NCBI GenBank assembly: GCA_001785985.1 | Contig: MFVE01000005.1 | Location: 112,533-176,532, forward strand | Length of the DNA stretch: 64,000 nt | Direction: 5' to 3' | Source: Candidatus Nomurabacteria bacterium RIFCSPLOWO2_01_FULL_42_17 | GTDB lineage: Bacteria; Patescibacteriota; Minisyncoccia; Phycocordibacterales; UBA9973 | In this document: piece by piece, positions 9,575 through 10,738 of the stretch | How the letters are laid out: each line of letters starts with the position of its first letter | Position numbering within the stretch: the stretch's first letter is position 1 | Program-made: the position numbers and the translations under genes | Notes under the pieces: generated by a model | Database searches by the model: none | Seen by the model: only the letters and a program-made list of their open reading frames with translations | What the model was told of the DNA's origin: nothing

Positions 9575-10738
9575 TCAAATCAAGTTGACTTCTGGGATAA
9601 GTTTAAGGTCAAATTTATTTTTTACATCAGCGATGATCATCTGCGCTAAATTTTTTATCTCCTCGCCCTCTGCTCCGCCGTAATTTACCAAGACTAGGGC
9701 TTGCTTATCGTGCACGCCGACGTTGCCGAGTCTTTTGCCCTTCCATCCACACTGCTCGATCAGCCAGCCAGCCGGAATTTTGACCGCTCCGCCCTTGCCC
9801 GCCAAAGCAGGAGCGTCGGAGGGCTCATCGAAATACGGCATGTCGGGATACGTTTCCTGCAACTTCTTCAATTCCGTCGGAGATACGAAAACATTCTTGA
9901 AAAAACTTCCGGCATTTGGGATTACGGCCGGATCCGGCAGTTTGGTTCGGCGGATATGCGAAACCGCATCGCTGATATCCTTGGAATTTTTTATTTCAAT
10001 TTTATTCCCGCCTGCAACGCTATGCCTGCCCGAATCGCTACGCGAATCGTTGCGGACGGGCGTAGCATTGCGGGCAGGTTTTTCTAAATATTCAGCAAGA
10101 ATTTTATAAGAGAGATTTGGTTTTGGAATTTTGCTTAATTTGAGAGTGATCGCAGTAATAAAATATTTATCTTTTAATTTATTTTTAAAAACGCTTTCTC
10201 GATAGCCAAATCCGCATTCTTCTTTGCTAAAAATTCTCTTCTTATTCTCTTTACCCGTGTCGACATCAAAAGCTTCGACATTGACGAGCACCTGCTCTAA
10301 CTCCGCGCCATATGCCCCAATATTCTGCATCGGCGCAGCGCCGACAGTGCCGGGGATAAGCGCTAAATTCTCGATGCCCCAGAGTCCGCGCCCGACCGCG
10401 AAGGTCACGAGGTCGTGCCAGATCTCTCCGCCCATCGCGCGAATATAAACAAAATCTTTCCCGACGCTTTCGGTCGGGACCCCGACCCTTTGGGGCGTCG
10501 GGGCTTTTAAAATCTCGATCCCTTTCAATTTATTTAAAATCACCAAACCATCAAAATCTTTGGTAAACAAAACATTACTCCCTCCACCCAGAAAAAGTTT
10601 TTTGTTATTTTTGAATTCCGAAGCATCAAAAATCTCTCTCAAATCATTTTCCGTGTGAATTTCTACAAAAAATTTTGCCGTGGCAGAGATGCCAAAGGTA
10701 TTTAGTTTAGATAAATTATAGTTTTGCTGTATGTTCAT
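9575..10738 (-). CDS. murB: UDP-N-acetylenolpyruvoylglucosamine reductase MurB, longer than usual (387 aa) because of two in-frame GC-rich insertions
   Basis: FAD-binding N-terminus (KLFLGGGSNVLFTKDFDGLVI), the substrate-domain motif LALIPGTVGAAPMQNIGAYG and C-terminus ...EQCGWKGKRLGNVGVHDKQALVLVNYGGAEG. Confidence 0.85.
   Translation of the reverse strand: MNIQQNYNLSKLNTFGISATAKFFVEIHTENDLREIFDASEFKNNKKLFLGGGSNVLFTKDFDGLVILNKLKGIEILKAPTPQRVGVPTESVGKDFVYIRAMGGEIWHDLVTFAVGRGLWGIENLALIPGTVGAAPMQNIGAYGAELEQVLVNVEAFDVDTGKENKKRIFSKEECGFGYRESVFKNKLKDKYFITAITLKLSKIPKPNLSYKILAEYLEKPARNATPVRNDSRSDSGRHSVAGGNKIEIKNSKDISDAVSHIRRTKLPDPAVIPNAGSFFKNVFVSPTELKKLQETYPDMPYFDEPSDAPALAGKGGAVKIPAGWLIEQCGWKGKRLGNVGVHDKQALVLVNYGGAEGEEIKNLAQMIIADVKNKFDLKLIPEVNLI
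10007..10078. repeat. Family-A GC-rich imperfect palindromic element, long copy, in frame inside murB
   Basis: CCCGCCTGCAACGCTATGC[36-bp internal segment]GTAGCATTGCGGGCAGG flanked by T-runs. A 37-bp short copy is at 14775-14811 in rluA. Confidence 0.7.
10461..10501. repeat. Second GC-rich nested palindrome inside murB
   Basis: CCGACGC...GGTCGGG-ac-CCCGACC...GCGTCGG. It encodes an extra PTPQRVGVPTESV segment relative to other MurB sequences. Confidence 0.5.

Follow-up and report, generated by a model that had tools for sequence, protein, structure and literature searches.

The stretch of DNA considered here (the window) comprises 64,000 nucleotides of contig MFVE01000005.1 from Candidatus Nomurabacteria bacterium RIFCSPLOWO2_01_FULL_42_17, a member of the Candidate Phyla Radiation (CPR; Patescibacteria). 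It carries murB, a gene for a cell wall synthesis enzyme whose product was found in a homolog search to be 100% identical to a protein of Candidatus Nomurabacteria RIFCSPLOWO2. Inside this gene lies a short, GC-rich palindromic segment made of four hexamers, which we refer to as the double-hairpin (DH) element (Table 1). As we argue below, the segment looks like a small mobile element rather than a feature of MurB, because the dispersed family to which it belongs has in-frame members in many essential genes and others immediately upstream of a tiny gene for a GIY-YIG nuclease.

Table 1. Coordinates of the DH element, its host gene, the other palindromes of the window and the nuclease/tRNA/DH loci of metagenome contigs (L numbers denote loci).
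Feature	Sequence	Coordinates	Strand	Remarks
murB (UDP-N-acetylenolpyruvoylglucosamine reductase)	window	9575..10738	-	387 aa; Pfam FAD_binding_4 and MurB_C
DH element, core	window	10460..10502	.	43 nt; 45 nt with the flanking Y/R bases 10459 and 10503
DH hexamer 1, CCCGAC	window	10460-10465		
DH hexamer 2, GTCGGG	window	10473-10478		
DH hexamer 3, CCCGAC	window	10481-10486		
DH hexamer 4, GTCGGG	window	10497-10502		
murB site-2 palindrome	window	10007..10078	.	peptide EKPARNA...AGGNKI; different family, not DH; second palindrome nested inside
murB site-3 palindrome	window	about 9785..9826	.	peptide EPSDAPALAGKGGAV; arms CGCTCCGCCCTTG/CAAAGCAGGAGCG; yet another family
Palindrome copy with arms CCGCCTGCAACGCTATGC/GCGTAGCATTGCGGGCAGG	window	14775-14815		in open reading frame 14215-14901 (strand -), RluA-type pseudouridine synthase (Pfam PseudoU_synth_2)
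Six gene-internal palindromes	window	60426-60475, 5426-5475, 53396-53445, 50891-50940, 44061-44110, 4796-4845		in polA, thyA, uvrB, uvrA, an ABC ATPase gene and a DEAD-box helicase gene
Nuclease/tRNA/DH locus	L216	4940-5340		
Nuclease/tRNA/DH locus	L105	900-1300		
Nuclease/tRNA/DH locus	L153	4810-5230		
Nuclease/tRNA/DH locus	L219	4930-5420		

On the plus strand the core reads CCCGAC GCTTTCG GTCGGG AC CCCGAC CCTTTGGGGC GTCGGG. An earlier reading made from the letters alone (the sequence-only reading) had described a nested palindrome here, and the palindrome is real: the outer arms CCCGACGC/GCGTCGGG pair at all eight positions, the inner arms GGTCGGG/CCCGACC at all seven, and the element ranks third in stability among the approximately 12,800 50-nt segments of the window. 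Because the four hexamers are one word in alternating orientation, two tandem hairpins can form besides the nested fold. The tandem hairpins are the minimum-free-energy (MFE) fold of the RNA (-29 kcal/mol, z = -3.4; 1 of 200 shuffled sequences was as stable), and compensatory variants among the copies described below indicate both folds, pairing hexamer 1 with 2 in L111, L123 and L153 and hexamer 1 with 4 in L086. The pattern CCCGACN{3,12}GTCGGG occurs twice in the 64 kb, both times within this element, with 0.00 occurrences expected from shuffles. The GC content at 10461-10501 is 73%, compared with 44.8% for murB (40.8% when its three palindromic segments are left out) and 39.8% for the window; the figures given earlier for palindrome and gene, about 60% and about 38%, were off, in the conservative direction. 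A search of Rfam found no family at the murB element, nor at the DH upstream of the nuclease gene introduced below.

The element is in frame in murB, following the AAAG of a Lys-Glu junction, and its sense (minus) strand, GCC CCG ACG CCC CAA AGG GTC GGG GTC CCG ACC GAA AGC GTC GGG, would be read as APTPQRVGVPTESVG. Close MurB homologs have a baseline length of ~337 aa, compared with 387 aa here, and in the alignment the baseline CPR homologs read ILKEDSENV where the present protein reads ILKAPTPQRVGVPTESVGKDFV, a net gain of 13 residues. The HMMER alignment to Pseudomonas aeruginosa MurB (7osq) has its 13-residue gap exactly at KAPTPQRVGVPTE; the E. coli MurB structures are equally short, and all solved MurB structures lack these 13 residues. 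The earlier claim of extra residues mapping onto the palindrome therefore holds as to the in-frame insertion and its place, and falls short as to its size, which had been put at roughly 10. An AlphaFold2 model made with an alignment of 30 sequences reached only moderate quality (mean pLDDT 64) and served only to place the insert as a low-confidence loop between two strands: residues 83-92 have pLDDT below 50 and lie between strands 74-78 and 96-102, at the tip of a beta-hairpin. The element is presumably translated as a 13-residue disordered surface loop of the pattern PT..VG..PT..VG. The cleanest pair of empty and filled sites among the homologs, ILE-E-DSESV and ILE-VPTKVGIPTEVGK-DSESV (P0085), fits the insertion of TCCCGAC..GTCGGGA into a GAA codon behind its G.

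Other CPR MurB proteins share the insert: it is present in full at the identical site in about 24 of 120 close homologs; most of the others read EDSE, and several further proteins carry decayed remnants (APTKIEKD, APSEVGKD, VPTPSVEED). The sequence-only reading had named, as the observation that would speak against it, the same segment encoded by non-palindromic DNA in such relatives. In the ten homologous insert-bearing murB copies whose DNA we examined, eight of them fetched as genes and two coming from the metagenome scan described below, the insert is palindromic and built from CCCGAC/GTCGGG hexamers without exception, an outcome in favour of that reading. Some copies are short, with tetraloops on two stems of 6 bp, others are long as in the present gene, and one has a nested hexamer order (L088). 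We then compared codon use inside the element with the rest of the gene in 11 murB copies whose proteins are 62-72% identical (Fisher test). Within the element Gly is GGG in 28/28 cases, compared with 56/310 elsewhere in the genes (p 2e-19), Val is GTC in 30/32 compared with 45/250 (p 1e-17), and Pro is CCG in 20/27 compared with 39/124 (p 6e-5), and the codons flanking the element vary freely. Since synonymous positions are nearly frozen inside the element, conservation acts on the nucleotides and not on the peptide.

Two side observations concern the gene itself. Outside the CPR the nearest MurB relatives are those of Bacteroidota (Hymenobacter, Cytophagales, Chitinophagales; ~42-47% identity, of the 337-aa type), and a scan of genome contigs with the MurB alignment, which returned mostly Bacteroidota, included seven Nomurabacteria loci, none with the insert. 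In a Nomurabacteria relative (L086 1-983) a reverse-transcriptase (RVT_1) gene lies immediately upstream of murB.

The murB element has many counterparts elsewhere. A scan of metagenome contigs for the exact four-hexamer pattern returned at least 120 loci with at least 124 copies in at least 115 distinct sequences; the counts that follow refer to the 124 copies among the matches listed, two of which lie in murB. Their consensus is (AG)Y-CCCGAC-loop-GTCGGG-RY-CCCGAC-loop-GTCGGG-R(CT), with a core of 31-54 nt, a centre GGGRYCCC, and flanks of consensus AG-Y ... R-CT that prolong the palindrome. The elements have ~70% GC in genomes of roughly 40% GC, the GC of the contigs ranging from 0.30 to 0.61. 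Hosts that were checked are CPR bacteria: the present murB is from Nomurabacteria, and the nearest relatives of the UvrA of L131 (59% GC) are named Pacebacteria, Paceibacterota, Patescibacteria, Minisyncoccia and Parcubacteria. Long-form copies closely similar to the one in murB sit in other genes at L103, L127, L142 and L146. The order of the hexamers is not constant, L088 reading CCCGAC, CCCGAC, GTCGGG, GTCGGG, and this variation together with the coexistence of short and long forms shows local rearrangement of the hairpins.

The copies are spread over more than 25 unrelated genes, in both orientations, and over spacers. Open reading frames (ORFs) of at least 200 aa hold 47 of the 124 (about 38%), and 42 lie in frames shorter than 100 aa; the length of core plus 2 is a multiple of three in 34/47 copies in long ORFs, compared with 18/42 elsewhere. 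Pfam confirms that the host protein is intact, with domains extending across the element, in UvrA, RF2, DnaK, DnaE, SMC, GatB, RpoA, PheT, IF2 and H+-PPase, and by eye we judged ComM-like, DinB, TrxB, GatA, YchF, PPDK and VirD4-like proteins to be further hosts. The same DNA is read in three frames, giving PT..VG..PT..VG, SRR..SGSRP..ASG or PD..RDPD..SG, which excludes selection on a particular peptide. At four independent loci including L103, where it is in frame (LMEKSRRPEGVGVPTEASGKTDE), the element lies in or beside the release factor 2 gene prfB, which may join murB and dnaK as a recurrent host site.

Presence and absence between relatives can be followed in two further proteins. The UvrA proteins of L097 and L131 carry copies at different sites, each of which is empty in the other protein and in the UvrA of the window; in DnaK the site is filled in L139 and L140 and empty in L099. 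Filled sites have the junctions AAG|Y...R|A (AAG|Y...R|AA in murB, DnaK and UvrA). Among the 120 closest UvrA homologs of L131, with about 80% identity or more, L131 itself is the lone carrier, which argues for a recent gain.

As a separate observation, the four-hexamer motif also occurs in a spacer of five small viral-like IMG/VR contigs of about 5.3 kb (L089-L093, 4.8-6.4 kb, GC 0.52-0.62; for example L093 4430-4500). A longer GGGGAGAGGG/CCCTCTCCCC stem, GGGGGAGAGGG...CCCTCCCTCTCCCC, encloses it in these contigs, giving a three-way junction without an Rfam match, and it may reflect convergence or a link to phages of the CPR.

A small ORF adjoining the element was first noticed in loci with several copies. 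When all open frames in ~800 kb of loci were compared by phmmer, ten homologs of this ORF were found, eight of them within 135 nt of a DH. These DH-adjacent ORFs encode 78-99 aa and match the Pfam domain GIY-YIG (PF01541) over residues 3-73 (E = 7e-15 and 1e-13) and no other domain; NCBIfam gave weak, sub-threshold matches only. When the 757 open frames lying no more than 300 nt from a DH were clustered all against all, the GIY-YIG family came first with eight loci, ahead of the host genes for DnaK and RF2, and was the sole recurrent neighbour that is not a host gene; no transposase-like cluster appeared among these 757 frames, which surround at least 124 copies. The profile made from these eight proteins has at least 5,685 homologs, and the named ones in the best 120 listed are all from the CPR (Patescibacteria, Wolfebacteria, Paceibacterota, Parcubacteria). 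The L153 locus combines the nuclease gene with four DH copies in 10.7 kb. Variants of the hairpin alter both arms together, as in TCCGAC/GTCGGA (L152, L153, L214) and GCCGAC/GTCGGC (L111, L219).

Four nuclease homologs, selected independently by the length of their contigs alone, all have a DH of the CCCGAC..GTCGGG type 20-60 nt upstream of the start codon, and all four have a tRNA gene (Asn, Phe, Arg, Phe) at the nuclease stop codon or within ~65 nt after it; in L214 and L219 a hairpin is also found downstream of the nuclease gene. Adjacency to tRNA genes holds for the first set of nuclease genes, too (Thr, Gly, Met, Met, Val, His, Asn), and of the 124 DH copies 27 have a tRNA gene no more than 500 nt away, compared with 7.1% of bases. 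The upstream DH sits within a duplicated 5' piece of the adjoining tRNA. In L216, whose nuclease lies at 5001-5267, the arrangement GCCGAGGTAG-c[DH]a-CTCAGTTG-tt-ATG...CC-GCCGAGGTAG-CTCAGTTGG has the duplicate split at tRNA position 10/11. In the four loci of Table 1 the nuclease stop codon was seen to overlap or abut the 5' acceptor stem of the intact tRNA gene; the duplicate is split at position 10/11 in these loci except L219, where the split is at 15/16 and a second hairpin-split tRNA fragment follows the tRNA. The whole has the look of a cassette that was inserted into tRNA genes. Two more distant nuclease homologs (L174 3641-3949 and L164 485-799; E about 1e-5 to 1e-4) likewise have tRNA genes, or 3' remnants of tRNAs, beside them. 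The palindromes on their flanks are of other kinds, such as GCGTAAAGCGACG.. in L174, which hints at co-varying pairs of nuclease and hairpin.

The interpretation offered by the sequence-only reading, that a GC-rich nested or double hairpin encodes an in-frame insertion, is supported by these results. What goes beyond it is the large dispersed family of which the murB palindrome is one member, and the link of this family to a gene for a small GIY-YIG nuclease. Our reading, to which we assign a probability of roughly 0.72, is that in murB we see a solo copy from a family of short GC-rich double-hairpin repeats of the CPR/Patescibacteria, a small and probably mobile hairpin element. The GIY-YIG protein would recognise the DH hairpin, probably as single-stranded DNA (ssDNA), and would either spread or maintain the repeat or use it as its cognate site, as Ssn nucleases do with NTS/SRM repeats and RAYT proteins with REP/REPIN repeats. 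Solo copies, the one in murB included, would then be non-autonomous derivatives. In essential genes they would survive only if the reading frame is kept, no stop codon comes with them and the loop that receives them is permissive; the murB segment would be translated. One may go a step further and suppose that DH and the GIY-YIG gene of 86-99 aa together form a previously undescribed autonomous mobile unit of the CPR with the nuclease as mobilising enzyme, which would insert at AG| sites, notably at tRNA position 10/11 (TAG|CTCAG), regenerate the 5' end of the tRNA and shed solo DHs in frame into essential genes. We regard this extension as tentative, its chances being somewhat short of even; if true, unexplained extra loops in CPR proteins would have a general source in solo DH copies.

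Several considerations weigh against the mobile-element reading and need attention. No target-site duplication is evident at the filled sites of murB, DnaK and UvrA, where we see only the loose AAG|Y junction. The 64-kb window contains a single DH copy, and a GIY-YIG gene of the family is absent from it. Among solved structures the nuclease profile comes closest to the UPF0213 proteins BH0048 (E = 1e-14) and EF2693, so that the nuclease is only a candidate member of the Ssn clade (cd10448), and the SRM motif HGTCWYN(0-2)YYVSBRHN(0-5)WNVSBRGN(0-2)RNCYNB matches none of the 124 listed copies when these are searched with 15-nt flanks on both strands. Then there is phylogenetic clustering: on a neighbour-joining tree of the core MurB alignment the insert requires 14 gain or loss steps, against 22.1 +/- 1.3 with shuffled labels, which indicates that much of its spread within murB reflects vertical inheritance and loss, or recombination, rather than repeated insertion. 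On this tree the murB insert is partly vertically inherited and has also been gained or lost many times. Mobility, cleavage and translation of the element are things we infer, and the functional link between nuclease and hairpin, likewise inferred, is the main uncertainty of the reading; each of the two could be targeting tRNA genes on its own.

The closest analogue that we found is the Ssn family of nucleases (Chenal et al. 2025, Nat Commun; PMC11893778), single-domain GIY-YIG proteins of ~94 aa that cut ssDNA beside a cognate hairpin repeat. This repeat, NTS or SRM, a hairpin of 20-50 nt, flanks the ssn gene and is dispersed in hundreds of copies, of which 2% lie inside genes in Neisseria meningitidis, and its authors note the architecture resembling that of an insertion sequence (IS) and the analogy to RAYT and REP (PMC11893778). 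The DH system shares with it the single-domain GIY-YIG gene of ~90 aa flanked by a hairpin repeat with further copies dispersed, and variants of the nuclease accompany variants of the hairpin in both. The DH repeat, however, differs in sequence and its unit is a hairpin doublet; it lies mainly 5' of the nuclease gene, whose 3' end a tRNA gene abuts, with the duplicated 5' piece of the tRNA around the hairpin, an arrangement to be set beside the main text of the Ssn paper (PMC11893778), which makes no mention of tRNA. The hosts also differ, CPR bacteria not being mentioned in PMC11893778. Many DH copies, moreover, are intragenic and in frame, unlike most NTS of N. meningitidis.

In this last respect the DH family resembles the Rickettsia palindromic elements (RPEs), repeats which Ogata and colleagues reportedly described in 2000 as lying in frame in many essential genes of a reduced-genome bacterium. 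RPEs (RPE-1 to RPE-8) are about 100-150 bp long and AT-rich; they appear in the protein as additional surface segments, and relatives differ in having or lacking them. DH elements, too, are inserted in frame in diverse protein genes and polymorphic between relatives; with a core of 31-54 nt, well below the RPE length, and ~70% GC, and residing in the CPR, they differ from RPEs, and the likeness noted here is one of behaviour. Rickettsia is rich in SRM elements (PMC11893778), a hint that the RPE and SRM phenomena may be connected. What is new here is a variant of the known theme of hairpin repeat and small nuclease, with in-frame copies in the manner of RPEs.

Repetitive extragenic palindromic (REP) sequences and their REPIN forms are GC-rich inverted hairpin doublets, dispersed, and flank the gene of an enzyme acting on ssDNA hairpins, the REP-associated tyrosine transposase (RAYT); they are extragenic by definition. 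A short GC-rich hairpin doublet, dispersed and flanking the gene of a presumed cognate enzyme, is what we see in DH as well. The neighbour of DH, however, is a GIY-YIG protein (PF01541) and not a Y1_Tnp/tyrosine HUH transposase, and 47 of the 124 copies, unlike REP sequences, are found within ORFs of 200 aa or longer, where Pfam domains flank the element on either side. The double-hairpin elements of Allomyces and the GC clusters of yeast are GC-rich double hairpins in AT-rich fungal mitochondrial genomes, known for insertion into coding regions and a link to mobile endonuclease ORFs. As they belong to eukaryotic organelles and differ in sequence, they offer an analogy only. Full-text literature searches returned no description of DH elements in the CPR and no paper with the central 14-mer GTCGGGATCCCGAC, the Ssn paper (PMC11893778) being the closest match.

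One alternative to a mobile origin would be that MurB has a lineage-specific surface loop kept by selection on the peptide PT..VG..PT..VG, the palindromy being a by-product of a repeated peptide. That this peptide is common to about 24 of 120 homologs, at one site and in frame, would agree with such an idea; the freezing of synonymous sites to stem bases, the use of the same DNA in three frames elsewhere and in spacers, the predicted disorder of the loop and its absence from most homologs and from the solved structures largely refute it and leave it scarcely any credit. If instead the nucleotides matter to murB itself, the element could be a cis-acting structure of this mRNA or DNA, such as a translational pause, an RNase site or an attenuator, for which a stable hairpin (z = -3.4) kept in the insert-bearing homologs would be suitable. 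Most murB genes do without it, however, while more than 25 unrelated genes have it, in either orientation, as do spacers, and Rfam has no match, so we hold this to be very improbable. We disfavour to much the same degree a palindrome created de novo at the murB site by template switching or hairpin-primed duplication. The varying hexamer order (L088) and the coexistence of short and long forms are what such processes could produce, but they cannot explain why hexamers, GGGRYCCC centre and flanks are shared at no fewer than 124 places in unrelated genes, nor the link to one nuclease family.

If the element is mobile, its mover could be other than the GIY-YIG protein, namely an IS200/IS605-like tyrosine (RAYT) transposase acting on a REP/REPIN-type element, or a classical IS of which DH would be a miniature inverted-repeat transposable element (MITE), with the GIY-YIG gene a bystander. 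The hairpin doublet is like a REPIN, and the RAYT analogy is drawn in the Ssn paper itself (PMC11893778). Yet GIY-YIG is the only recurrent non-host neighbour of the listed copies, and no cluster resembling a transposase was found, with the proviso that the DH loci are short and a distant transposase would escape neighbour clustering. The four filled sites examined show no terminal inverted repeats with target duplication. We rejected the MITE of a classical IS in particular, since the junctions in murB, DnaK and UvrA need no direct duplication and no parent IS was seen; taken together, we consider this family of explanations quite improbable. A different view is that the repeats are not selfish and the system has been domesticated, the GIY-YIG protein as an ssDNA nuclease and its sites serving to modulate uptake or recombination of transforming DNA, with the murB copy as one such site. 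CPR bacteria are thought to depend on DNA uptake, the stems have been conserved at the nucleotide level long after insertion, and the murB copy is retained in many lineages, all of which would suit such a role. So would the precedent of NTS and SsnA in Neisseria (PMC11893778). On the other side stand the single copy in 64 kb, the decayed murB remnants, which suggest weak selection at the site, and the contrast between 2% of Neisseria NTS inside genes and 47 of the 124 DH copies in long ORFs. We regard domestication as rather unlikely, and it is compatible with the mobile-element reading as far as the origin of the copies is concerned.

CPR proteins are full of unexplained short insertions. For at least one class of them the source can now be given as a defined, dispersed DNA element, and not as evolution of the protein; those who annotate or align CPR proteins, or predict their structures, can allow for DH segments accordingly. 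In-frame palindromic elements, known from Rickettsia, thereby extend to a second, unrelated group with reduced genomes. The family also provides a candidate nuclease-hairpin pair of distinct specificity, comparable to the Ssn ssDNA nucleases, in an unreported arrangement at tRNA genes.

Lastly, DH is not the only palindrome of this murB. The sequence-only reading had counted two independent palindromic insertions; their independence holds, because the other palindrome (site 2) has different outer arms, CCGCCTGCAACGCTATGC/GCGTAGCATTGCGGGCAGG, which recur as the arms of the copy in the pseudouridine synthase gene, and the count has to be raised to three with the palindrome of site 3. The CCGCCTGCAACGCTATGC/GCGTAGCATTGCGGGCAGG arms define a second dispersed palindrome family of this genome, and the three inserts of murB belong to three different families. 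More broadly, the MurB proteins of Nomurabacteria and Paceibacteria have at least four variable insert sites; the same site can host different peptide families (PSDA.ALAGK, ENGSKASV, TSPQPSP..RRGG, MTSPPTPLLAKERG), site 3 being taken by several different families in homologs, and the LSAQAG peptide family is found at two different sites. Such occupation of the same sites by different families suggests that several palindrome families compete for the same permissive loops.

GC-rich palindromes are also seen inside six other genes of the window (Table 1), with 58-70% GC and an MFE of -21 to -31 kcal/mol per 50 nt. In the ThyA protein of the window (341 aa), the 266 profile positions of the Pfam match are spread over 314 residues. 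One further GC-rich palindrome, GTGCGAGCCGCAGGCACCAAGGTGCCGAGGCGGGGTCGCGCA at 54736-54785, follows downstream of tRNA-Lys (54649-54722) at a distance of 14 nt, within the spacer that precedes ORF 54843-56888, and could be a terminator or perhaps another tRNA-associated repeat.

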